Source: an uncultured Clostridia bacterium
GTDB lineage: Bacteria; Bacillota; Clostridia; TANB77; CAG-508
Length of the DNA stretch: 64,000 nucleotides
Assembly (NCBI GenBank): GCA_947626025.1
Contig: CANQQQ010000001.1
Location: 57,020 to 121,019 of the forward strand
Direction of reading: 5' to 3'
In this document: positions 897-50,268 of the stretch, in pieces
Position numbering within the stretch: position 1 is the first letter of the stretch
Layout: each line of letters starts with the position of its first letter
Translations under genes and position numbers: made by a program
The notes under the pieces: generated by a model
What the model saw: the letters and a program-made list of their open reading frames with translations, nothing else
Told to the model about the DNA's origin: nothing
Database searches by the model: none

Positions 897-1868
897 TTAT
901 ATATCTAGATATTCTTGATTTTCCATATACCAGTCAATTGTTTTTATAATTCCATCTTCAAATTTTGTTTCTGGCTCCCATCCCAATTGTTCTTTTATCT
1001 TTGTTGGATCTATTGCATATCTGTAATCATGTCCTTTTCTATCTGTAACATATTCTATCAAATCTTCTGATTTTCCAAGGCGTTTTAATATTAGTTTTAC
1101 TATTTCTATATTTCTTTTTTCATTATGTCCTCCAATATTATATCTTTCACCTTTTACTCCATTATGAAATACTAAGTCTATAGCTTTGCAATGGTCTTCT
1201 ACATATAGCCAATCTCTTATGTTTCTTCCATCACCATATACAGGTAATTTTTTATTATTTAATGCTAGACTAATCATATGAGGTATTAGTTTTTCATGGT
1301 GTTGATATGGTCCATAATTATTTGAACAGTTGGTTATATTTACATTCATTTTAAAGGTTTCAAAATATGCTCTTGCTATTAAGTCTGAACCTGCTTTTGA
1401 TGCAGAGTATGGGCTATTTGGATTTATTCTTGTCGTTTCTGTAAAATATCCTTCTTCTCCTAATGTTCCATATACCTCGTCTGTTGATATATGTACAAAT
1501 TTGTTTTCACTACCTTCTCCCCATACTTGTTTTGCAACTTCTAATAGAGTATGTGTACCCATTACATTCGTTTGAGTGAATATAAATGGTGTTTTTATAC
1601 TATTATCAACATGACTTTCTGCTGCAAAATGGATTACTCCATTTATATCATACTCCTTGAATATTTTCATAACTAAATCAAAATCACATATATCGCCTTG
1701 TACAAATGTTATTTTGTCTATTATTTTGTCTAAATTATGTATATTTCCTGCATATGTTAGTTTATCCAAAATTATTAATTTATATTCTGGATATTTGTTA
1801 CTAAAATAATGAGCAAAATTGCTTCCTATAAATCCTGCTGCTCCCGTTATTAAAATATTTCTTGTCAT
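897..1868 (-). CDS. rfbB: dTDP-glucose 4,6-dehydratase
   Basis: N-terminal ILITGAAGFIGSN Rossmann motif of the SDR family, YSASKAGSD catalytic Y-x3-K, about 320 aa, sits in an rfb cluster. Confidence 0.9.
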   Translation of the reverse strand: MTRNILITGAAGFIGSNFAHYFSNKYPEYKLIILDKLTYAGNIHNLDKIIDKITFVQGDICDFDLVMKIFKEYDINGVIHFAAESHVDNSIKTPFIFTQTNVMGTHTLLEVAKQVWGEGSENKFVHISTDEVYGTLGEEGYFTETTRINPNSPYSASKAGSDLIARAYFETFKMNVNITNCSNNYGPYQHHEKLIPHMISLALNNKKLPVYGDGRNIRDWLYVEDHCKAIDLVFHNGVKGERYNIGGHNEKRNIEIVKLILKRLGKSEDLIEYVTDRKGHDYRYAIDPTKIKEQLGWEPETKFEDGIIKTIDWYMENQEYLDI

Positions 1869-1900: not shown

Positions 1901-2437
1901 CTATAGTTCTTTCCATTTTTTGTCCTTTTCAGATTGTATTATTTTATCTATTTTTTCCAAAGGCCATTCTATACCTATTGTTTTGTCATCCCAGATAATT
2001 CCGCCTTCATCGTTTGGATTATAAAATTCATCACATTTATATGTAAATTCTGCTTCATCTGATAGAACTAAAAAGCCATGCGCAAAACCTCTTGGTATAA
2101 AGAACTGCAATTTGTTCTCTTCTGTTAAGATTGCTCCATAATATTTTCCATAAGTTTTAGAGTCCTTTCTTAAGTCAACTGCGACATCATAAACTTCTCC
2201 CTTTAGAACTCTTACTAGTTTTGCCTGAGGGAATTCCTTTTGGAAATGTAGCCCTCTTAGTACTCCTTTTGTAGATTTTGAGTGGTTATCTTGTACGAAT
2301 TCTGTAGTTATTCCTATTTCTTCAAAATCTCTTTTATTGTATGTTTCCATAAAAAATCCTCTGTTATCTTCAAATACAGTAGGTTCTATTATATATAATC
2401 CTTCAATTCCTGTTTCACGTTTCTTAAATTTTGCCAT
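1901..2437 (-). CDS. rfbC: dTDP-4-dehydrorhamnose 3,5-epimerase
   Basis: 178 aa cupin-type protein; GLYIIEPTVFEDNRGFFMETYN and RGLHFQ motifs typical of RmlC. Confidence 0.9.
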   Translation of the reverse strand: MAKFKKRETGIEGLYIIEPTVFEDNRGFFMETYNKRDFEEIGITTEFVQDNHSKSTKGVLRGLHFQKEFPQAKLVRVLKGEVYDVAVDLRKDSKTYGKYYGAILTEENKLQFFIPRGFAHGFLVLSDEAEFTYKCDEFYNPNDEGGIIWDDKTIGIEWPLEKIDKIIQSEKDKKWKEL

Positions 2438-2451
2438 TGTTTGTTTTCTCC

Positions 2452-3333
2452 TTAATCAATATCTTCTGCTAAATTTTTTAAAAATTTGCCATAGTCTGTT
2501 TTTAATAAGTTTTTTGATAATTCTTCTAGTTGTTCTGCTGTTATCCAGCCATTTTCAAAAGCAATTTCTTCTGGACAACATATTTGAAGTCCTTGCCTTT
2601 TTTGAATAGTCTGTACAAAGCTTGCAGTTTCAAGCAATGCATCATGTGTTCCTGTGTCAAACCACGCCATTCCTCTTCCTAATTTTTCTACTTTTAATTT
2701 TCTCATTTTCATGTATTCTTCATTTATAGAAGTGATTTCTAATTCTCCTCTTGCTGATGGTTTTACATTTTTTGCGATTTGCACCACATCGTTTGTGTAA
2801 AAGTATAATCCTGGTACTGCAAAATTTGATTTTGGTTTTAGTGGTTTTTCCTCAATAGATATTGCATTTCCTAATTTGTCCATTTCCACAACTCCATATC
2901 TTGTAGGATCATTTACTTTATATCCAAATATTGTGCATTCGTCTTCTCGTTCGTTTGCTCTTAACAAGATTGATCTTAAATCTCCTCCATAAAACATGTT
3001 GTCACCTAATATTAGTGCAACATTATTGTCTCCTATGAAATCCTCTCCTATTATAAATGCTTCAGCTAGTCCGTTTGGTTTCTCTTGGATTGTATATTCA
3101 AAATGCATTCCCCATTTGCTTCCATCTCCTAGTAATGTCTTAAATGTTTCATTGTCTCTTCTTGTAGTTATAATTAATATGTCTCTTATTCCTGCTTCCA
3201 TTAATACATACAATGGATAATATATCATCGGCTTGTCATATACTGGCATTATTTGTTTTGATATTGCTAAAGTTAGTGGGTATAGTCTTGTTCCACTTCC
3301 TCCAGCTAAAATTATACCTTTTCTATTTTTCAT
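2452..3333 (-). CDS. rfbA: glucose-1-phosphate thymidylyltransferase
   Basis: [17 protein letters not shown] nucleotidyltransferase motif, 293 aa, RmlA family. Confidence 0.9.
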
Positions 3334-3371: not shown

Positions 3372-4205
3372 TTATTTTGATAAGTATCTTCTTAATGCGT
3401 CTTCATAAGTTGGTATAATTATTCCATTTTTTAATAATTTATCTTTTGACATCTGTGAATTTTTTGGTCTTTTTGCAGGACTTTTAAATTCTTCGCTTGT
3501 TACAGGTATAACTTTACATTTTACATTTTCTAATTCAAAAATCATTTTTGTGAAATCATACCAAGTTGTATATCCAATGTTTGTAGCGTTATAAATTCCA
3601 TATTCTAATTTTTTATTAATTGTTTGATGTATAATACTTGCTAAATCTACAGCATAAGTTGGACTTCCATGCTGATCATTTACTACTTTTACTTCATTTT
3701 TTGTTTTAGCTAATTCTAGCATTGTTCTTACGAAATTATGTCCTTCTCCATATAGCCACGCTGTTCTAAAAATATAATATTTTGAGCAGTTTTCTTTTAT
3801 AAAATTTTCACCAGCAAGTTTTGTTGTTCCATATACTGCTTGTGGATTTTTTTCATCTTCTTCGCTATAGTCTTTATCTACTGGTCTATCTCCTCCAAAT
3901 ACATAGTCTGTACTAATATGAACTAAAATTGCGTTGTTTTCATTTGCTGAGATTGCTAAATTTTTTGGACCAATTGCGTTTATTCTATAAGCTAGTTCTT
4001 CATTTTCTTCTGCCTTATCTACTGCTGTATATGCCGCACAATTTATAATATATTCTGGATTTACTTTTTTTACAAATTCATCTACTTGCTCTGCATTTGT
4101 AATGTCTAAATCTGCAACGTCTGTGCAAATTAATTCTTCGTTTTTTAATTCTTCTTTTATTGCATTAGCAAGCATTCCGTTTGCTCCTGTAATTAATATT
4201 TTCAT
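3372..4205 (-). CDS. rfbD: dTDP-4-dehydrorhamnose reductase
   Basis: MKILITGANGMLA N-terminus typical of RmlD. Start trimmed to the ATG at 4205, which has a GGAGG 6 nt upstream; the track ORF extends to 4232 but overlaps the upstream gene. Confidence 0.85.
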   Translation of the reverse strand: MKILITGANGMLANAIKEELKNEELICTDVADLDITNAEQVDEFVKKVNPEYIINCAAYTAVDKAEENEELAYRINAIGPKNLAISANENNAILVHISTDYVFGGDRPVDKDYSEEDEKNPQAVYGTTKLAGENFIKENCSKYYIFRTAWLYGEGHNFVRTMLELAKTKNEVKVVNDQHGSPTYAVDLASIIHQTINKKLEYGIYNATNIGYTTWYDFTKMIFELENVKCKVIPVTSEEFKSPAKRPKNSQMSKDKLLKNGIIIPTYEDALRRYLSK

Positions 4206-24594: not shown

Positions 24595-24845
24595 AAATAC
24601 CCCCACATTAGCCGTACTTTCAAGAAATTTTATGGACCTGTTATACACAGGTGGGTGTCTACCTTAATACTCATGGGTTTCTTACTATTTTAATGACAGA
24701 ATTTTGCTTTAAAATTCTTCAAGAAAGTGCAAGCATACACGCCATATCAAGAGCTCGACTCCCGTATCCATTACTTTGTAGGTTCTAAAATTTCTGTCTC
24801 ATAAGCGCACTACGCAGGGATATTTTTATTCTCTCTTTACTTAAA
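24595..24845. other. ORF-free, GC-enriched (about 42% vs about 25% background) 250-bp segment in a 550-bp intergenic region; candidate structured RNA or foreign-DNA remnant
   Basis: No ORF of at least 60 codons on either strand; local GC spike; several short stem candidates (CCTGTTATACACAGG). No match to the consensus of any RNA family checked, including T-box, TPP and SRP (full list in findings). Confidence 0.25.
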
Positions 24846-40182: not shown

Positions 40183-40869
40183 CTAAAACTCTAAACATTT
40201 ATATTCTTGTATTTGATTATATAATGCTTTATCCTTATTATAATAAAAAGCCCATTCTTTATCCCCATATGAAAAGTGCCACCATTCTCCATCATATGGT
40301 GCAAATCCCTCTTCAAGCATTAATTTTCTTAATAATTCTCTATTTTTAATTGCATCTTCACTTATATATTCATTTTTATAATAACATTTATTGGAAGTAT
40401 AATCCAAAATTTCTGTTCCAAAATCCAATATGCTTTTTGAAACGTCATTATATATAGCTACATCTATTGCTCCTCCTGTTGGGTGTCCAGCAACAGACGG
40501 TACAGCAATTTTTTCATGTATATATTCATACAAATCAATTTCATCTTCAAATTCATTTTTCATATTTTTTAAAATATCATTAAAATACATTTCTTGTTTT
40601 TTTATTTCTCTAAAACCATATACCACTAATATTTTATATGATTTATTTATGATTTTTAATTTTTGAGATACCTTAATTAATTTATCATATACTGTTTTTC
40701 TAACAGGTATTTGCTTACCATATTCTAACATATCCATTCCTTTTTTGTACTTTCCAAAAACATACTCATCTTCTAATGGTATTAATACAAATTTTTCTTT
40801 ATTTGTTTCTTTATCATAATCACTTATTGTTAGTAAATCCCTATATTTCACGAAATTATTATTTAGCAT
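40183..40869 (-). CDS. D-alanyl-D-alanine dipeptidase (peptidase M15D, VanX/DdpX-like)
   Basis: AGHPTGGAIDV (S-x-H-x-x-G-x-A-x-D-type zinc site) and GEWWHFSYG (the E-W-W-H-F motif) of VanX-family dipeptidases. Confidence 0.8.
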   Translation of the reverse strand: MLNNNFVKYRDLLTISDYDKETNKEKFVLIPLEDEYVFGKYKKGMDMLEYGKQIPVRKTVYDKLIKVSQKLKIINKSYKILVVYGFREIKKQEMYFNDILKNMKNEFEDEIDLYEYIHEKIAVPSVAGHPTGGAIDVAIYNDVSKSILDFGTEILDYTSNKCYYKNEYISEDAIKNRELLRKLMLEEGFAPYDGEWWHFSYGDKEWAFYYNKDKALYNQIQEYKCLEF

Positions 40870-40890
40870 TTTTCCTCCTTAATATTTAAT

Positions 40891-41688
40891 CTATAAATCT
40901 AAAGAATATATCATTCCATCATTTTCAATATTTCCTGAAATTATCGCTCGTTGAAATTTATTATTCTTATAGTCTACAGTTGCTGTAATTATTAAACCTG
41001 ATGGCTGTACTATATCAATTTTCTGACATTGTTTTTTTAGATAAGCTTCAACTATACACACTGCTGTGCTTCCACTGCCACATGCTGTTTCATAAAATAG
41101 AGTATCTATATCCTTTACCCAAACAATCGGATTTATTTTTATTTTTCCTTTTTTCTTTTCGCAAAACATTACACCAACTGCCGAATTATTTACAAGATTA
41201 TAATTATCAATCAAATTTCTTCCAATTTGTTTCAAATTATTTTTATTATTTAAGTACTTTTTCGCTTCAAATTCTTGAATAACAATAATCGTAATTCCTT
41301 TCATCTCAACAATAAAAACTCCATTTTCCTTTTCTGTAACAATGTTACTATTCTCATTTAATGGTATTTCACACCAAGCTTTTTTATTTTTATCTACACC
41401 TGCTATAATTTTATCTTTTGAATTTACACATATCTGTATTTCCCCTGGCATTCCACCTAAATAGTTATATGCTGCACTTCTAGTTGCATTTCCACAAAAT
41501 TCTCCTCCTGCCATTTGTAGTTCTTTTTTTCCATTATTATTAATAAAACCAACTTGCTCAACATTTGTATGTTTCTTCATAATAGCATCGTTAATTTTTT
41601 TCTTCATTTTTTTAGTATAATTAGTACCATACACAAGTGCTGTATCATTACCGGCAGGTCTATATATAGAATATTTAATTTGACTCAA
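40891..41688 (-). CDS. diaminopimelate-epimerase-fold (DapF-like) PLP-independent racemase/epimerase
   Basis: 265 aa; GNDT near the N-terminus, GGEFCGNATRSAAY and ETACGSGSTAV, i.e. the two catalytic-Cys motifs of the DapF fold. TTG start with GGAGGG 8 nt upstream. Confidence 0.6.
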   Translation of the reverse strand: MSQIKYSIYRPAGNDTALVYGTNYTKKMKKKINDAIMKKHTNVEQVGFINNNGKKELQMAGGEFCGNATRSAAYNYLGGMPGEIQICVNSKDKIIAGVDKNKKAWCEIPLNENSNIVTEKENGVFIVEMKGITIIVIQEFEAKKYLNNKNNLKQIGRNLIDNYNLVNNSAVGVMFCEKKKGKIKINPIVWVKDIDTLFYETACGSGSTAVCIVEAYLKKQCQKIDIVQPSGLIITATVDYKNNKFQRAIISGNIENDGMIYSLDL

Positions 41689-42528
41689 TTTTTATCCCTC
41701 CAATTTTTTCTATTACATTGAATAAATTTTCTAATTTTCTCTGTTTTCGCATGTCTACTCTTGAATACTTTTCCATTTCATATTTTTTCTTTGCAGATTT
41801 ATTCCTTCTTAATTTCATAACCGCTTCTTCCTTTTATGTCTTTTAATTCTACCTTATTCATCTTAATTACGTTCCTTTTAGAATAATTATAAATTTTATA
41901 TATTTTTAAACTTAGTTTTATTTAGAAAAAATCGATATACTACAAAAAGACTATTTATAGTAATTTTTCTTCCTACAAATAGCCTTTTTAGTATATCTAT
42001 TCTTAATACTTTTAAACTATCGTAGGCAAAGCAATTTTAGCCTGTACCTACGCTACTTTTAGCAATAGTTACAAGCTCCTACAATGATGATGTAATTGGT
42101 TTAAAAATATTTTAAAATTCATAATTATTCCTCTTTTTATATAATATATGTTAGCATAATTTTTTATATACGTCAAGTATAGAGTATACTAACATTGCAT
42201 AAACTTTTTGTGGGAAACACCATTTTTGATATTTACCCATACATTATCTTACTTAGTATTTTTCTTATATTGCTATGCATTCCAGTTTTTTCAATTTCAA
42301 ATGTATATGTTTTTGTTTCTTCAACACCTATTTTTATATTTCTTGCTATTACTTTATCATAAGTTTAAAAAATTATCAATATTTTTTAAAAGTATATATC
42401 TGTTTATAAATGGTAATTATTGTATATAAAAAGCATAATTTAATTGAAAATATCAACTTTTTGTGATATTATTTTATAAAATATTAGAATTAAAAATTTT
42501 ACTACATAAACCAAAGGAGATATCAAAT

Positions 42529-43533
42529 ATGGAAGACAAACAAAATAAAAATGAATTTATAGATAAAATGTTAGAAAAATCACAAGAAGCTTTTTTATTG
42601 GCAATAGAAATATATAATAAACCAACTATAAAATATAGACTAGAAGGGTTTGCATTCTTCATTTGTAATGCTTGGGAGCTTTTACTAAAATCATATATAT
42701 TAAATAATAATGATATGGATAGTTTATACTTCAAAAATAAACCTGACAGAACTATTGGACTTTCAGATTGTATAAAAAAAGTATTCACAAATGAAAAAGA
42801 TCCAACTAGAAAAAATCTAGAAATAATTGCTGACTTAAGGAATACATCAACACATTTTATTATAAAAGAAATGGAGAATTTATATTTACCATTTTTACAA
42901 GCAAATACATTAAATTATTCTCAAAAATTGTTTGACTTTTTTGGATTAGACATAACCAAAAATATAGATACTTCATTTTTATCATTAGTAACAAATAATG
43001 CTAGTTTGAATGATAATGAAATATTAAGTACATATGGAGACCAAATATTTAATAATTATAAAAAATTAAGACAGGAAACAACCAGTTTATTAGAAAATGA
43101 AAATAATAATAAACTAGCAATAAATATTAATTTAAACTTAAGGGTGGTAAAAAATGCCAAAGATGCACAACTTACATTTGCAGTTGCAAATAATGCAGAA
43201 GATGCTGTATATATAGTTGACAAAATAAAAGATATAAATACTACATTTCCATATTCTCAAAAAAATGCTAGAGAAATAATAATGAAAAATTTAAAAAGAA
43301 AAGACATTGAAATAGATTTACATCAAGCGAATTTTAAATTAATATGTAATAAATATAATTTAAAGCAAAATGAAACTTATTTCTATCATCATAATTTAAC
43401 AAATAGATATATGTGTTCACAAAATCTAATAAACTTTGTAACAGATTTATTAACACAAAATTCTAATCTAATAGAGGAAATAAAGCTAGAAAACAAAAAA
43501 ATAGAGTTAACCCCAGGGGCAAAGGATTCTTGA
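42529..43533 (+). CDS. hypothetical protein with HEPN-type R-x4-H motif (candidate abortive-infection/toxin RNase)
   Basis: 334 aa from the ATG at 42529 with an AAAGGAGA RBS; the track ORF starts further upstream. An N-terminal helical region about 100 residues long ends in LRNTSTHF, a canonical HEPN R-N-x-x-x-H catalytic signature. No other domain recognised. Confidence 0.4.
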   Translation: MEDKQNKNEFIDKMLEKSQEAFLLAIEIYNKPTIKYRLEGFAFFICNAWELLLKSYILNNNDMDSLYFKNKPDRTIGLSDCIKKVFTNEKDPTRKNLEIIADLRNTSTHFIIKEMENLYLPFLQANTLNYSQKLFDFFGLDITKNIDTSFLSLVTNNASLNDNEILSTYGDQIFNNYKKLRQETTSLLENENNNKLAININLNLRVVKNAKDAQLTFAVANNAEDAVYIVDKIKDINTTFPYSQKNAREIIMKNLKRKDIEIDLHQANFKLICNKYNLKQNETYFYHHNLTNRYMCSQNLINFVTDLLTQNSNLIEEIKLENKKIELTPGAKDS

Positions 43534-43890
43534 TATACAAATGTATATCTACTCCCATTCGGGAACCCAGCCTTTTTCCTTCACAAGTTAACTCTTATTA
43601 AATATATTATACAATTTTTATTGAAATATTGCAAGAAATTTCTGGAAATTGTAAAAAACTTTTAATTGTTTTGTAATATCTTTGTAACAATTTGTATTCT
43701 AATTTTATTACTCTATAAAAAAAATTGCTTTATTATTAATTTAATATGTAAAAATATTTATTAAAAAAAGGACTTTAGTAGACAAAGGGACATAAGCTTT
43801 TGTCTCAGGTTTTTGCTCTCCTAATTTTATTATCTGCTGTTAGCTAAAAACAACTTACAAAACTTTTTTTAGTTCGTAAGTTGTCTTAAA

Positions 43891-43920
43891 TTGGAGCGAT
43901 TACGAAACGGGTATGCGAAA
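43891..43920. repeat. degenerate copy of the tRNA-Gly 3' end (possible att-site remnant)
   Basis: TTGGAGCG...GGGTATGCGAAAA here versus TTGGAGCGGGTAGCGAGAA at the tRNA 3' end (50195-50213): an 8/8 match, a 10-nt insertion, then about 11/13 matches. Confidence 0.3.
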
Positions 43921-44021
43921 AATATGTGTGTAATGTAATTGCTCTTTTTATATAATTCGATTTATTGTTTTTACTTTAACATAAGATTTACATTTTTTCA
44001 AGTAATTTAGTGAAAAATTTT

Positions 44022-44066
44022 TTAAATGCAAAAATGTTGCTTTTGCAACAGATTTTTGCATTTAAA
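44022..44066. promoter_or_regulatory. near-perfect inverted repeat upstream of the 124-aa gene (candidate operator)
   Basis: AAATGCAAAAATGTTGC-TTT-GCAACAGATTTTTGCATTT, with a GTTGC/GCAAC core like the palindromes near 47.7 kb. Confidence 0.35.
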
Positions 44067-44265
44067 TATGATATATATATAATAATAATATTTAAATTAT
44101 TGGAGGTTTTTAAAGGACTAAAAAACAAAAATATTTAATTTTAAATTATTATAAATGGAATATGTATAGCAGATAGCAAATTTTATTATATACATACAAA
44201 TACAAAATTTAATTTATTAGGAGGAATCGATTAGGAATAATTATAATAATAAACAAAGTAAGAAA

Positions 44266-44640
44266 TTGCAATATATAGGCAAATTGAATAAAAAGGTTAT
44301 TGGCGAATATGGAGATAAATTGACTACATATGATGTGGTGTTAACAGATGAAAGAAAGTTACACATATTAAATAAACACAAAAATGATTATGAGATTATA
44401 CTTAATAATATAAATAATACTGTTTTAAATCCACAGGAAGTGATAGAAGATTATAAAAATGTAGATACACTGTTCTTTTTAAGCAATTTAGAAAATAATA
44501 ATTTAAATGTTGTTGTAAAATTGAATACACTTAATGATAACAAACATCCTCAAAATTCAGTAATGACTGCTTGGATAATTAGAAATAGCAATCTGATAAA
44601 ATTACGAGGAAAAAACAAAACTATTTACAAAAAAGAATAA
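44266..44640 (+). CDS. hypothetical protein (124 aa)
   Basis: TTG start in the ORF track with no SD; the frame is open from 44221, and GGAGG at 44220-44224 could serve an ATT start at 44230. N/K-rich; no motif recognised. Confidence 0.3.
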   Translation: MQYIGKLNKKVIGEYGDKLTTYDVVLTDERKLHILNKHKNDYEIILNNINNTVLNPQEVIEDYKNVDTLFFLSNLENNNLNVVVKLNTLNDNKHPQNSVMTAWIIRNSNLIKLRGKNKTIYKKE

Positions 44641-45019
44641 AAATGTTATAATTAAAGTACAATATAAGTAGTTATTTGAAGTAGAGATTGTGCTGCTACA
44701 CACCTAATATTAGGTCAAAAGAAATGTTGGATAGGGCACACCAACCAAATAACAAACGCATAGAAGTCGTGGAAACACGACTTCTTAATTATATATAAAT
44801 TCTGCATAAAATTGAAATAATTACTAAAAAAGATTCCAAAATAAGCATATTATAATTATTCTTTTATTTTAAGATTTGATAATAAATATTTGATAGTTAT
44901 AGAATAATTAAGAAATTTGCTTTTTTATGTAAAATACTGTATAATTTAAATATGAGCGTAGTAACTCATATTTGTAACTAATGGCACTAAAAATTAAACA
45001 ATTATAAGGAGGACTTACT

Positions 45020-46109: not shown

Positions 46110-47501
46110 TTAAAATCTTGTATCATTGTTTTTCTTTCTGTTATTTTCAATTTGTTTTTCATTTGGTATAGTTACTTTTCTATAAATATTGTTAGCAATT
46201 TCATTATCATTGTCATCAAATATACCATTTTTATAAAGGTCGTTACTTACGATTTTATAATTTTCATCTTTGTCATAACAAATTCTTTTGTGAAAATGGC
46301 TCATAATATTATGCCAAAAGCCTTTAAATTTCTGTAATTCTTGCTTTATTTTTTCCTTTTCAGTTTGTAACTTATTTATAATTTTATCTTTTGTAGATAG
46401 TTCACCTTTTAGATTATTTATTTCATCATCTTTCAACTCTAATTGATATTTAAGTGAACGATTTTCTTTTTCTATTTCAAATGTAGAATGTTCAAAATCT
46501 TTAATTGCCATATTTAAGTCATTTACACTTCTAACTGTTTCAGTTATATCTTTTACATCTTTTGTATATTTTTTTATTTTCTGTACATCCTCGTTTGAAA
46601 TAAGCATATTGTTTTTGTTTAGCTTAGCAGATTTTAAATTATCTAATATTTCATTTATATTTTTACTTGTATCATCAAGTTTTTTTGTTTGATTATTAGC
46701 CTCAAATAGTTTTTGTTCTTTCTTTTCTTGTTGTTTTTTTATTTGTCTATAATCTCCCATATCTTTAATATTTATATCTTGATTTCTTCCTTTTTTCTTC
46801 TGTTTTAATAAAGAATGTTCTGAATAAACTTTATTATATGATTTTATGCAACAAGCTCTCATTTCATCTTGTAATTTTGTTAGAGTTTCTTTTGTAAACA
46901 CTTTTGATTTAGCAGGTTGCTTTTTCATTCCTTTTTTGTAGTCATCTTTTATTGGTACACCAACTAAATGTAAATGTGGAGAGATTTCATCAAAATGTAT
47001 TACTGCATTAGCAATTTTAAACTCTGGTATTATTTTCATTAAATCTTCTATTTGTTCTTTATATACATCTACCATTCCTAATCTATAACTTGTATCTTTA
47101 TCATTCCAAAAATCCATATCTCCAAGTTCAATTATAAACTCACAAGCTAAATCTTTTTGTTTATCTTTTGATATATGCTTAAAATAATCTTGTATTTTCC
47201 TATTATCACGGCTTTGCTTTGCATTATATTCGATTCTTGCTTGTTCAAATTCTTGTAAATACAAGTTTTGAACATCTTTATATAAATTATCTGTTCCATA
47301 AATAATACAAATATTTTCTCTATCATTATCATAATCTCTTAAATTGTGTTTATTTACTTTTGAAAGTTGAGTTGAATTTTGTATTCCATTATTTGAAAAT
47401 GATGTTGTTTCTGATGGATTATTCTTTGCAATCTCTTTTGCTTTTGTTGTTTTATTTTTATCACTACCTAAGTGAATAGAATATGCTAATTCTTCGCTCA
47501 T
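46110..47501 (-). CDS. MobV-family (Mob_Pre) conjugative mobilization relaxase
   Basis: AVIHFDEISPHLHLVGVPI matches the MobV motif III HxDE...PHxH; K/E-rich coiled-coil C-terminus as in MobM. Start set at MSEELAYSIH (GGGAGG RBS); the track ORF is 11 codons longer. Confidence 0.8.
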   Translation of the reverse strand: MSEELAYSIHLGSDKNKTTKAKEIAKNNPSETTSFSNNGIQNSTQLSKVNKHNLRDYDNDRENICIIYGTDNLYKDVQNLYLQEFEQARIEYNAKQSRDNRKIQDYFKHISKDKQKDLACEFIIELGDMDFWNDKDTSYRLGMVDVYKEQIEDLMKIIPEFKIANAVIHFDEISPHLHLVGVPIKDDYKKGMKKQPAKSKVFTKETLTKLQDEMRACCIKSYNKVYSEHSLLKQKKKGRNQDINIKDMGDYRQIKKQQEKKEQKLFEANNQTKKLDDTSKNINEILDNLKSAKLNKNNMLISNEDVQKIKKYTKDVKDITETVRSVNDLNMAIKDFEHSTFEIEKENRSLKYQLELKDDEINNLKGELSTKDKIINKLQTEKEKIKQELQKFKGFWHNIMSHFHKRICYDKDENYKIVSNDLYKNGIFDDNDNEIANNIYRKVTIPNEKQIENNRKKNNDTRF

Positions 47502-47753
47502 CTTTTTCCTCCCTTTGACATTGCTTCGAAGCATAGGAATTTGACCTTGGTCAATATTCCTAACCCCCTATGAGTTTTGACCTCTTATCAAAACTCGGGG
47601 GCTCTGCGAGGCAATAAATTTTTTCCCAAATGGGATAAAATTTATTCAAATTAACTCGGTACAAAATTTACATTTGCTTATTGCAAATACAAATTTGTCC
47701 TCGCTAATTTGTTGTTGCAACATAGGCAATATATGAAGTAATAGTTGCAACAA
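47502..47753 (-). promoter_or_regulatory. candidate oriT/promoter region upstream of the relaxase gene
   Basis: Several inverted repeats: GAGTTTT-N11-AAAACTC, GC-rich CTCGGGGGCTCTGCGAG, and two GTTGCAAC palindromes 32 bp apart. MobV oriTs characteristically lie just upstream of mob. Confidence 0.35.

Positions 47754-49618
<1,865 letters not shown>

Positions 49619-50194: not shown

Positions 50195-50268
<74 letters not shown>

Follow-up and report, generated by a model that had tools for sequence, protein, structure and literature searches.

The window analyzed here, a stretch of 64,000 nucleotides from an uncultured Clostridia bacterium, contains a gene for a 334-amino-acid protein with a HEPN signature, and this locus raises the question of whether such a candidate toxin acts alone or is kept in check by a partner. 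An earlier note, made from the sequence alone, had presented the protein as an orphan with no visible partner and had left room for an RNA partner encoded in a neighboring spacer. Re-reading of the frames confirmed the open reading frame (ORF) and its own ribosome-binding site (RBS) as claimed there (Table 1); a longer frame of the same ORF starts at the GTG at position 42463.

Judged by its sequence, the protein is a member of an already described HEPN family and represents no new kind of protein. Pfam families PF12358 (DUF3644; 181.1 bits against a cut-off of 27.6, amino acids 13 to 185) and PF18740 (46.6 bits against a cut-off of 24.9, E = 5e-12, amino acids 235 to 319) both score above their gathering thresholds, in N-to-C order, and 2228 homologs have the same two-domain architecture. 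Nine PADLOC models of PDC-S19 match the protein (PDLC04952 with E = 1.6e-103 over amino acids 9 to 323). The EC042_2821 family of HEPN proteins was named by Anantharaman et al. in 2013 (PMC3710099), and the novelty that the earlier note had implied is not supported. PDC-S19 is a PADLOC candidate single-gene phage defense system, and PADLOC and the literature both regard the family as single-gene. The literature searched, mostly outside subscription journals, contained no mention of PDC-S19, and the same body of literature, with few subscription journals covered, tied no RNA to DUF3644, EC042_2821, PDC-S19, or HEC-08.

The claimed R-N-x-x-x-H signature is exact (R104-NTST-H109), and R-x4-6-H occurs only once in the whole protein, at these residues. 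Since 0.1 R-x4-H sites and 0.3 R-x4-6-H sites are expected from composition, the motif alone is weak evidence, and it gains its weight because R104 and H109 are conserved and the fold fits. Each of the two residues is kept in 105 of 106 family representatives (clustered at 50% identity), among which N30, W49, K54, and N96 are also ∼99% conserved. The AlphaFold2 model of the protein (mean pLDDT of 90.4) has a four-helix up-and-down HEPN bundle around the motif in its N-terminal domain; the motif sits where helix 92-110 of the model meets helix 115-138, with R-x4-6-H at the start of the last HEPN core helix. These features suggest an RNase-type defense or toxin effector. The C-terminal 200 residues, previously said to match nothing, contain the PF18740 domain, and the alpha/beta region of this part probably starts near amino acid 195. 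Its model consists of a beta-hairpin and helices only, with residues 192 to 239 of low confidence; the C-terminal domain matched no solved structures, those of restriction endonucleases (REases) included, and no solved-structure relatives were found by sequence search. The protein retains the family-conserved residues K208, D235, K279, and S297 but has Q in place of D214 (82% of the family) and C in place of Y296 (86%). As a family-conserved Asp of the predicted REase-like domain is gone (D214Q), the effector may have lost some of its activity here.

A candidate sigma-70 promoter of the HEPN gene sits at the left edge of a conserved cassette (see below); by itself it is a weak, one-sequence match in AT-rich DNA. 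Both spacers around the gene have a GC content of 0.22 to 0.24. No ORFs of ≥60 amino acids other than low-complexity frames were found between positions 41846 and 42463, and none between 43534 and 44265. The earlier description of the spacers as gene free does not hold for the downstream one, in which a minus-strand RNA gene lies. The weak downstream hairpin noted before is real and corresponds to helix P4 of this conserved RNA, and the suggestion of an RNA in the spacer proved a productive lead. A terminator scan of the region found 4 terminators, against 0.3 expected, the first downstream of the HEPN gene being a hairpin with a T-run that is possibly the 3′ end of the HEPN mRNA. An mRNA ending there would read through the small RNA (sRNA) gene and would therefore be fully complementary to the sRNA.

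Table 1. Features of the HEPN gene and the convergent sRNA gene (positions in the 64,000-nucleotide window)
Feature	Position	Strand	Details
Two-gene cassette	42443..43693	.	HEPN promoter, HEPN ORF, antisense sRNA gene and its promoter; extent of DNA homology
Candidate sigma-70 promoter, HEPN gene	42444..42472	+	TTGAAA-17-TATTAT, TG-extended; 10/12 consensus matches
RBS of HEPN gene	42513..42519	+	AAAGGAG, 9 nt before ATG; read from sequence
HEPN-EC042_2821 ORF	42529..43533	+	334 aa; DUF3644 plus EC042_2821 C-terminal domain; PADLOC PDC-S19; PHROG 9605
HEPN domain	42565..43083	+	aa 13-185
Rx4H HEPN motif R104-N-T-S-T-H109	42838..42855	+	Preceded by IADL, followed by FI
EC042_2821 "REase-like" domain	43231..43485	+	aa 235-319; Pfam PF18740
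Structured sRNA gene, ∼105 nt	43494..43598	-	Overlaps last 39 nt of HEPN ORF; covariance model
sRNA U-tract	43501-43495	-	Stem-plus-U-tract end
sRNA helix P1	43594-43585 with 43513-43504	-	Consensus fold
sRNA hairpin P4, variable	43549-43532	-	Consensus fold
sRNA hairpin P3, GAAU loop	43565-43552	-	Consensus fold
sRNA promoter	43606..43634	-	-35 TTGCAA 43634..43629; 17-nt spacer; -10 TATAAT 43611..43606
Terminator-like hairpin and T-run, first downstream of HEPN gene	43780..43815	+	Terminator scan

The sRNA belongs to a strongly covarying RNA class that is absent from Rfam 15, whatever its function. The covariance model scores 102.9 bits at the window locus (E = 2.8e-23), and the alignment of 66 distinct sequences contains four covarying helices; the RNAalifold consensus has 27 base pairs, 15 of them with compensatory changes, arranged as a three-way junction with a GAAU-capped hairpin. 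In this alignment, 96.9% of the paired cells can pair, compared with 87.9% after shuffling (0 of 500 shuffles reached the observed value) and 41 to 62% in slid controls, and double-change cells number 208, compared with 61 in the shuffles. Across phyla, the stems covary around junction and loop nucleotides that do not vary. The 317 G.U cells, against 11 A.C cells, fix the RNA strand as minus; a plus-strand structure in the 3′ untranslated region was rejected, because only 79.7% of the cells pair on that strand, versus 96.9% on the minus strand. The window sRNA has a minimum free energy of −31 kcal/mol (z = −2.66). Searches of Rfam 15 returned nothing at the sRNA position for the whole window at the gathering threshold and nothing, the abiF motif included, on either strand of positions 43400 to 43760 at E ≤ 10; at 15 other loci, no match at the gathering threshold covered the sRNA. 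A TTGACA-17-TATAAT promoter and the U-tract are conserved across loci at constant position, with ≥10 of 12 promoter consensus matches in 64 of 74 loci, a TG extension in 44 of 75, and a −10 box that ends 27 to 34 nt before the GCUGGGU core. The distance from the HEPN stop codon to the sRNA anchor has a median of 5 nt (75 loci), and in most loci the stop codon overlaps the sRNA terminator.

The sRNA was present at 155 of the 156 evaluable genes of this HEPN clade. In the genome loci, the covariance model matched exactly once per locus in 80 of 80 evaluable cases and nowhere else in 1.14 Mb, and in an independent, protein-anchored viral sample the sRNA occurred with 75 of 76 genes. The gene-RNA coupling is thus well supported, and the gene described as an orphan is physically coupled to a conserved antisense sRNA gene. 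The linked pairs are found in several phyla and in settings as different as the space between type III mod and res genes, prophages, satellites, and the mobilizable element of the window. Records of cultured phages also have the gene together with the sRNA, in Listeria, in Staphylococcus, and in a satellite of Streptococcus; cultured carriers include the StB20-like phage of S. epidermidis, LP-HM00113468 of Listeria, and the satellite Javan495 of S. pyogenes Manfredo. The sRNA accompanies HEPN relatives down to 32% identity; DUF3644 proteins below ∼31% identity are without it, which indicates that the family can exist without the RNA. Covariance scans of viral and metagenome sequences gave at least 120 matches each, and no match was found in complete genomes of E. 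coli. In a Staphylococcus phage StB20-like record, a "hypothetical protein" coding sequence is annotated over the sRNA.

To find other partners, ORFs up to three genes on either side of the homolog were clustered for 81 loci. No recurrent protein partner emerged, the commonest neighbor family being present in only 10 of the 81 neighborhoods, and there was no small antitoxin-like neighbor family; the earlier statement that no MNT-like or small antitoxin protein gene is adjacent is true here and in the 80 related loci. Typical neighbors are integrases, serine recombinases, type III and type I restriction-modification (R-M) genes, and CI-like repressors. Of all loci, L001 and L002 are the most closely related (95% identity of the protein); the window shares DNA with them only from 42443 and 42422 to 43693 and 43695, respectively, and the flanks are unrelated; at several loci both flanks differ, and only the gene and the RNA are common. 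The best explanation is that the HEPN ORF belongs to the cargo of an integrated mobilizable element and forms, together with the sRNA gene, a compact cassette of 1.25 kb. No DNA near-identical to the whole island was found in plasmids and phages. The RNA element was rejected as an integration target with a duplicated 3′ end, as no direct repeat of ≥15 nt is shared between positions 41600 to 44300 and the tRNA-Gly end of the island.

How might the two components work together? We tentatively favor a toxin or defense gene held in check by its convergent sRNA, analogous to AbiF and its noncoding RNA (ncRNA), a reading that we regard as quite possible and whose mechanism is drawn by analogy. The sRNA, which would be transcribed from its own sigma-70 promoter across the HEPN stop codon on the opposite strand, would be the "safety catch" of a toxic RNase. 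Most likely, it would pair with the HEPN mRNA at the 3′ end, to which it is complementary, as in type I-like antisense control, and/or bind the HEPN protein as an RNA antitoxin, in a type III-like manner comparable to that of AbiFr/RCd22 with AbiF. The unpaired junction nucleotides, strongly conserved across phyla, would be superfluous in a pure antisense role and count against control by antisense pairing only. The RNase would fire only once the supply or integrity of the sRNA fails, e.g., when a phage or plasmid attacks or when the element is lost, and, once freed, might cleave RNA via R104/H109, so that growth halts or the invader is cleared. What the computation shows is that the protein belongs to the family, has the HEPN fold, and conserves the motif, and that an RNA gene exists on the minus strand in nearly obligate linkage with the HEPN gene; the RNase activity, the toxicity, the role in defense, and the regulatory or antitoxin action of the RNA are all points that we infer.

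The distribution of the RNA itself bears on this reading. The gene is almost never found without the RNA and the RNA does occur without the gene, an asymmetry that, by analogy, would be typical of toxin-antitoxin pairs. Among the matches listed, 51 of 140 evaluable sRNA copies, about one third, adjoin other genes (RhuM, HsdM, Mrr, Abi_2, PemK-like, SIR2_2, and CI-like repressors), and the sRNA is therefore not specific to the HEPN gene; 18 of these 51 are co-directional within phage operons or lie beside tRNAs. This is what would be expected if the sRNA were an autonomous RNA of mobile elements (a trans-acting sRNA of prophages or integrative and conjugative elements, or a terminator- or insulator-type boundary) whose 3′ flank is a favored slot for defense cargo. 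The HEPN gene would then be a true single-gene defense, as PADLOC and the literature treat it, and the RNA would do nothing for it. Some pairs of loci are as compatible with an autonomous element as with a partner, in that the RNA is either all that is homologous or the fixed flank of a slot with swapped cargo: at L132/L240, one and the same slot of ∼1 kb, bounded by the RNA and by another conserved flank, is taken by a PemK-like gene and the DUF3644 gene; in L219 and L246 the RNA-side backbone is 100% identical and the cargo alone differs; and pairs of a CI-like repressor or hsdM with the RNA are found with and without an intervening DUF3644 gene. A passive hotspot, however, would leave many genes RNA-free, whereas only a single evaluable clade gene lacks the RNA across very different settings and several phyla. 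The overlap of stop codon and terminator and the loci that share nothing else than gene and RNA also speak against an autonomous RNA, which we consider possible if somewhat unlikely.

The invariant junction and loop nucleotides within covarying stems are the usual signature of a recognition surface, and, with the precedent of HEPN proteins with an ncRNA, they would suit an sRNA that is the specific protein-binding antitoxin or cofactor of HEPN-EC042_2821, in a ribonucleoprotein like AbiF-AbiFr or Cas13-crRNA. Copies without the gene would then be orphan antitoxins, remnants, or phage-borne decoys by which the system is disarmed. This would accommodate the solitary copies within phage operons and tRNA clusters, the pseudo-ToxI of phage phiTE being likewise a phage-borne copy, as well as the remnants of DUF3644 3′ ends beside the RNA at L284 and L295 (found by HMM) and, seen by eye, at L082 and at L219, which keeps the C-terminal tail. 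Such remnants accompany only a few orphan copies, and decayed HEPN genes were rejected as a general explanation for them. Against a specific partner stand sRNAs 87 to 98% identical to HEPN-linked ones that are convergent to intact, unrelated Abi_2, SIR2_2, PemK-like, and HsdM genes, binding of many unrelated toxins by a single RNA being implausible; moreover, known type III antitoxins differ from this RNA, of which there is one copy, placed downstream of the gene and antisense to it. We judge a specific protein-binding role to be unlikely. A DNA site, e.g., an attC-like folded single strand or another cassette-exchange site, appears very improbable. An ORF followed by a 3′ element structured on the bottom strand and common to unrelated cassettes does resemble integron cassettes, the ends of P1 loosely recall RYYYAAC...GTTRRRY, and integrases and serine recombinases are frequent nearby. 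Yet a −35/−10 promoter at constant distance and a U-tract are conserved, the three-way junction with its GAAU-capped hairpin is no attC bulged hairpin, the 317 G.U pairs count against a DNA site, and sequence conservation across phyla is far above that of attC sites; the element is always single copy, never in arrays, and no IntI-type integrase is linked to it. An integron attC site in particular was rejected on account of the fold, the promoter and U-tract, and the one copy per locus.

More broadly, the ∼105-nt RNA might be a new, widespread class of structured sRNA and a portable "safety catch" or sensor with which toxic defense effectors are equipped. One large clade of HEPN-EC042_2821 proteins would depend on it, so that PDC-S19 would consist of two components, a protein and an RNA. 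The RNA would be reused with RhuM, Abi_2, PemK-like, SIR2, and R-M cargo, with the solitary copies in phage operons and tRNA clusters acting as phage-encoded decoys against these systems. We put this generalization forward as a doubtful one. The protein alone is routine, its family having been named in 2013 and being already in PADLOC, but what catalogs list as a single-gene defense candidate appears to be a unit of protein and RNA, the RNA being invisible to gene-centered tools (PADLOC and DefenseFinder) and to ordinary genome annotation. If the RNA does control the RNase, the ORF cloned alone would mislead on toxicity and defense, the pair would be a second, independent HEPN toxin under a structured ncRNA after AbiF-AbiFr, and it would bear on the origin of RNA-guided HEPN effectors such as Cas13. 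The sRNA is directly testable, as it is carried by phages and satellites in culture, with Listeria, Staphylococcus, Streptococcus, and Corynebacterium as hosts.

Among known systems, the EC042_2821 family/PDC-S19 is the one to which the protein belongs, with the same two Pfam domains in order, a conserved Rx4H, and settings in R-M operons and mobile elements. The window clade (∼320 to 345 amino acids, ≥32% identity) differs in being without the N-terminal wHTH of the ∼420-amino-acid forms and in having the antisense sRNA, which is absent from more distant members. HEC-08 combines a DUF3644 HEPN domain with C-terminal zinc-ribbon-like domains, and its defense requires the motif histidine (Payne et al. 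2024, 10.1101/2024.01.29.577857). It shares the DUF3644-type N-terminal domain and the embedding in other defense systems, but the C terminus of the window protein is of the EC042_2821 type, with no zinc-ribbon Pfam match and 4 Cys in the protein, and the HEC-08 description mentions no RNA component. Ishtar, an anti-plasmid protein in which an N-terminal HEPN domain is followed by a small C-terminal domain of the alpha/beta type (Poire et al. 2026, 10.64898/2026.07.06.735840), is similar as a single polypeptide with a HEPN and an uncharacterized alpha/beta domain and as a monogenic immunity gene on variable regions. Its Table S3 members, however, have only 218 to 261 amino acids, and membership was rejected because three sequences of that table had negative bit scores both in phmmer and in an hmmsearch with the family profile. 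Among solved structures, the HEPN domain matches those of the type VII HEPN/MNT system HepT/MntA best (5yep, 7ae2, and 8xdj), but no MNT gene is nearby in the 81 loci, and the window protein is much larger, with an extra domain.

Type I pairs with a 3′-overlapping convergent antisense RNA include txpA/RatA and bsrG/SR4 in prophage regions of Bacillus subtilis and par in Enterococcus. The convergent sRNA with its own promoter over the 3′ end of the toxin mRNA and the prophage or mobile setting in Firmicutes are common to them and to the window locus. The toxins of these pairs are small membrane peptides, and their antitoxin RNAs are not known to be shared between phyla, whereas the candidate toxin here is a 334-amino-acid soluble two-domain protein and the core of the RNA is structured and does not vary. 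AbiF (an Abi_2 HEPN protein) and AbiFr/RCd22 form a type III-like toxin-antitoxin system described as a Cas13 ancestor, in which a cis-encoded structured ncRNA neutralizes the HEPN toxin and is reported to bind it directly and to repress abiF expression (PMC12373285; PMC12737573). The RNA of the window locus has neither the abiF motif nor repeats and does not lie upstream on the same strand; the HEPN family is a different one and the RNA, for which Rfam gave no match, is unrelated. It is antisense, downstream, single copy, over the stop codon, and present also with non-HEPN genes. What the two systems have in common is a HEPN RNase toxin, predicted in the case of the window protein, that is carried on phages and mobile elements next to a conserved structured ncRNA.

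Between the window and related loci, about 100 to 150 nt around the stop codon of the HEPN gene are 75 to 82% identical at the DNA level even where protein identity is ∼40% and the gene body is no longer alignable. Inspection of 80 gene tails revealed a single conserved element with visibly covarying stems, laid out on the minus strand as a TTGACA-17-(TG)TATAAT promoter (at least 10 of 12 matches in 64 of 74 loci, at a fixed distance), an RNA body of ∼95 nt, a closing stem, and a U-tract (at least 6 U in 8 nt in 71 of 75 loci). For 66 distinct sequences, RNAalifold predicted six helices with 27 pairs, and compensatory changes occurred in 15 of these. Of the cells counted, 96.9% were paired, compared to 87.9% in shuffles and 41 to 62% in slid controls, and double-change cells numbered 208, compared to 61 in shuffles; none of 500 shuffles attained any of five pairing measures. 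The strand of the RNA is fixed as minus by the 317 G·U cells against 11 A·C cells, and a plus-strand structure, which would cover only 79.7% of cells, was rejected. The window RNA has a minimum free energy of −31 kcal/mol (z = −2.66). It matched no Rfam 15 family at an E value of ≤10, and we found no literature linking the protein family to an RNA. The RNA gene is very probably real, and it represents an undescribed, strongly supported structured small RNA.

Positions of the HEPN gene, the small RNA, and surrounding features in the window
Feature	Position	Strand	Remarks
6S RNA gene	24596..24823	−	Rfam RF00013, 72.9 bits
VanX-like D-Ala-D-Ala dipeptidase and DAP-epimerase-like ORF	40183..41688	−	directly outside island edge
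HEPN ORF	42529..43533	+	334 aa; AAAGGAG 9 nt 5′ of ATG
Small RNA	43494..43598	−	overlaps last 39 nt of HEPN ORF
RNA promoter, −10	43611..43606	−	
RNA promoter, −35	43634..43629	−	
PBECR-type nuclease-like ORF	44266..44640		124 aa; weak PBECR2/PBECR3 matches
Skipping-rope RNA	44671..44753		Rfam RF02924, 59.1 bits
MobV relaxase	46110..47534		in island
Large serine recombinase, Recombinase and zinc-ribbon ORF	47754..49049	−	431 aa
Large serine recombinase, Resolvase N-terminal ORF	49235..49618	−	127 aa
tRNA-Gly	50195..50268	−	island end

The earlier note had correctly placed the ORF and its ribosome binding site between two AT-rich spacers. Both flanks (GC 0.22 to 0.24) are free of credible protein genes for ∼0.7 kb each, but the downstream one holds the RNA gene, and the "weak downstream hairpin" described there exists not as a separate feature but as the variable hairpin P4 of the RNA. 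Clustering of the ORFs up to three genes away from a homolog in 80 genome loci and the window showed no recurring small antitoxin-like gene, consistent with the absence of such a neighbor from the window. The commonest neighbors were tyrosine integrases (10 loci) and large serine recombinases (7 loci); type III Mod lay upstream in 7 loci and Res downstream in 5, and HsdM and CI/LexA-like repressors were also among the most frequent.

The claim that the gene has no visible partner is not supported, in view of the RNA. A covariance model run on the genome loci (1.14 Mb) found, in each of the 80 evaluable loci, a single copy lying antisense to the gene at its 3′ end, and no further matches elsewhere; in an independent, protein-anchored viral sample, 75 of 76 evaluable genes carried it. 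The sole exception among these 156 genes of the DUF3644 clade is locus L400, where the ORF is followed by an ordinary hairpin-plus-U terminator in place of the RNA (2400..2760). The RNA was found in the records of Listeria phage LP-HM00113468, Staphylococcus phage StB20-like, and Streptococcus satellite Javan495. It is kept with relatives down to 32 to 35% identity and absent from DUF3644 proteins at ≤31%, including ∼420-amino-acid forms and a Mycolicibacterium plasmid copy. When the RNA core pattern was taken as the starting point, 45 of 74 evaluable viral and 44 of 67 evaluable metagenome copies among the matches listed were convergent with such a gene. Of the remaining 51 copies listed, 27 faced some other convergent gene no more than 450 nt away, and 18 were codirectional inside phage operons, some next to tRNAs. 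Ten sampled copies with other partners included RhuM (6 loci), HsdM (4), and Mrr (2), as well as CI-like repressors, Abi_2, a PemK-like toxin, SIR2_2, and Bro-N. The DUF3644 clade is thus the commonest partner of the RNA and is almost never without it.

The StB20-like record (L201, NC_028821) contains two copies (1614..1714 and 3447..3544), one antisense at the DUF3644 gene 3′ end and the other, likewise convergent, 17 nt past a "CapA family protein" gene; a 55-amino-acid "hypothetical protein" CDS (3484..3651) that covers the former RNA together with its promoter is probably a misannotation. Divergent codirectional copies (51 to 66 bits) in phage operons (loci L081, L126, L118, L104, L114, L117, L137, L139, L142, and L147; in the first two they immediately follow tRNA genes) might act as phage-encoded decoys or reflect some unrelated role of this RNA. 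Other RNA-carrying contigs contain a twister-sister ribozyme (L093) or a HEARO RNA (L154).

Many RNAs with other partners are 85 to 100% identical to HEPN-associated ones, and homology breakpoints were of three kinds. Backbone and RNA may be identical with the cargo swapped, as in the locus pair L219/L246, where 535 nt are 100% identical over the RNA and upstream backbone before the cargo diverges; the L219 cargo, a 344-amino-acid HTH protein, retains the DUF3644 protein's C-terminal tail of ∼18 residues (KKDPENIIAILKQRMKKS), which points to recombination inside the gene 3′ end. In L132/L240, an RNA-flanked slot is occupied by DUF3644 in one case and by a PemK-like toxin in the other. In the third kind, the shared sequence is the 100- to 130-nt RNA alone. 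The window and its nearest relatives have only 42443..43693 in common, a stretch that takes in the HEPN gene and the RNA, each with its promoter. These arrangements make the RNA gene a portable module that lies convergent to toxic or defense cargo.

The island, which extends to tRNA-Gly and has the HEPN gene at its opposite end, is an integrated mobilizable element; no near-identical DNA was found in the plasmid and phage collections searched. Its large serine recombinase is split into two ORFs by a 185-nt gap; the gene has probably been disrupted, which may have left the element immobile. At locus L008, the HEPN gene is preceded by a related recombinase at a distance of ∼1.4 kb. PBECR stands for phage Barnase-EndoU-ColicinE5/D-RelE-like nuclease; the skipping-rope RNA follows the PBECR-type ORF by 31 nt on the same strand, making them the island's second pair of RNase-like gene and structured RNA. 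Outside the island, the dipeptidase matches Peptidase_M15 (E=2e-17) and the DAP-epimerase-like match is weak, below the Pfam cutoff; the 6S RNA gene identifies the window as chromosomal, from a Clostridia-like organism of low GC (∼27%).

The protein matches Pfam DUF3644 (amino acids 13 to 185, E=2e-53), along its entire length the PADLOC phage defense candidate PDC-S19 (E=1.6e-103), and PHROG 9605, and none of the NCBIfam models searched. Its sole R-x4-6-H motif, IADL-R104-NTST-H109-FI, is the signature already recognized in the earlier note; by itself it proves little, since 0.1 to 0.3 such sites are expected by chance from composition. Among 106 representatives (mutual identity of ≤50%), R104 and H109 are each conserved in 105, and N30, W49, K54, and N96 in ∼99%. 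Family membership and these conserved residues therefore make the HEPN assignment all but certain, in a family already known. What does not stand is novelty: DUF3644 was classed in 2013 as a HEPN family, "EC042_2821," that occurs in R-M operons and carries a novel REase domain as a fusion (Anantharaman et al. 2013, PMC3710099), and as a novel orphan toxin the protein is ordinary. An exhaustive profile-free search gave 1337 cluster representatives, and the architecture is the same in all full-length proteins among the matches listed from the word-indexed homologs (n=2228); the closest relatives come from uncultured Clostridia MAGs.

The C-terminal part, said to match nothing, contains the Pfam EC042_2821 "restriction-endonuclease-like" domain (amino acids 235 to 319, E=5e-12). 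In the predicted structure, residues 192 to 239 are of low confidence and 240 to 327 form helices and a beta-hairpin, with no match among the solved structures compared. The family-conserved K208, D235, K279, and S297 are retained; D214 (82% of the family) is Gln in the window protein and Gln, Asn, or Lys across it and its close relatives, and Y296 (86%) is Cys in all of these. Judging from these residues, the putative nuclease site may be degenerate in this subclade.

Functional evidence is restricted to relatives: mutation of the motif histidine abolished phage defense by HEC-08, which shares the DUF3644 domain and differs in its zinc-ribbon-like domains (10.1101/2024.01.29.577857), and Ishtar HEPN proteins, three of whose family sequences (preprint Table S3) lack any detectable similarity to the window protein, clear plasmid RP4 (10.64898/2026.07.06.735840). 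All that we say on the function of protein and RNA we infer. The gene is nearly always with the RNA and the RNA often without the gene, an asymmetry predicted by toxin-antitoxin dependency, and we lean toward functional coupling of the two. The main rival, in which the RNA would belong to the mobile element as an autonomous RNA and border a hotspot for cargo, we judge rather improbable, and a DNA site is an unlikely explanation. The small RNA turns a catalogued "single-gene" defense candidate into a likely protein-RNA module.

A specific "safety-catch" mechanism is proposed tentatively, and two nonexclusive modes would fit. The RNA could exert antisense control on any mRNA reading into its gene, a generic mode that would explain the multiple partners and that resembles RatA/txpA. 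It could also bind the RNase directly, as AbiFr/RCd22 is reported to do with AbiF (PMC12373285; PMC12737573); such binding would explain its invariant junction nucleotides.
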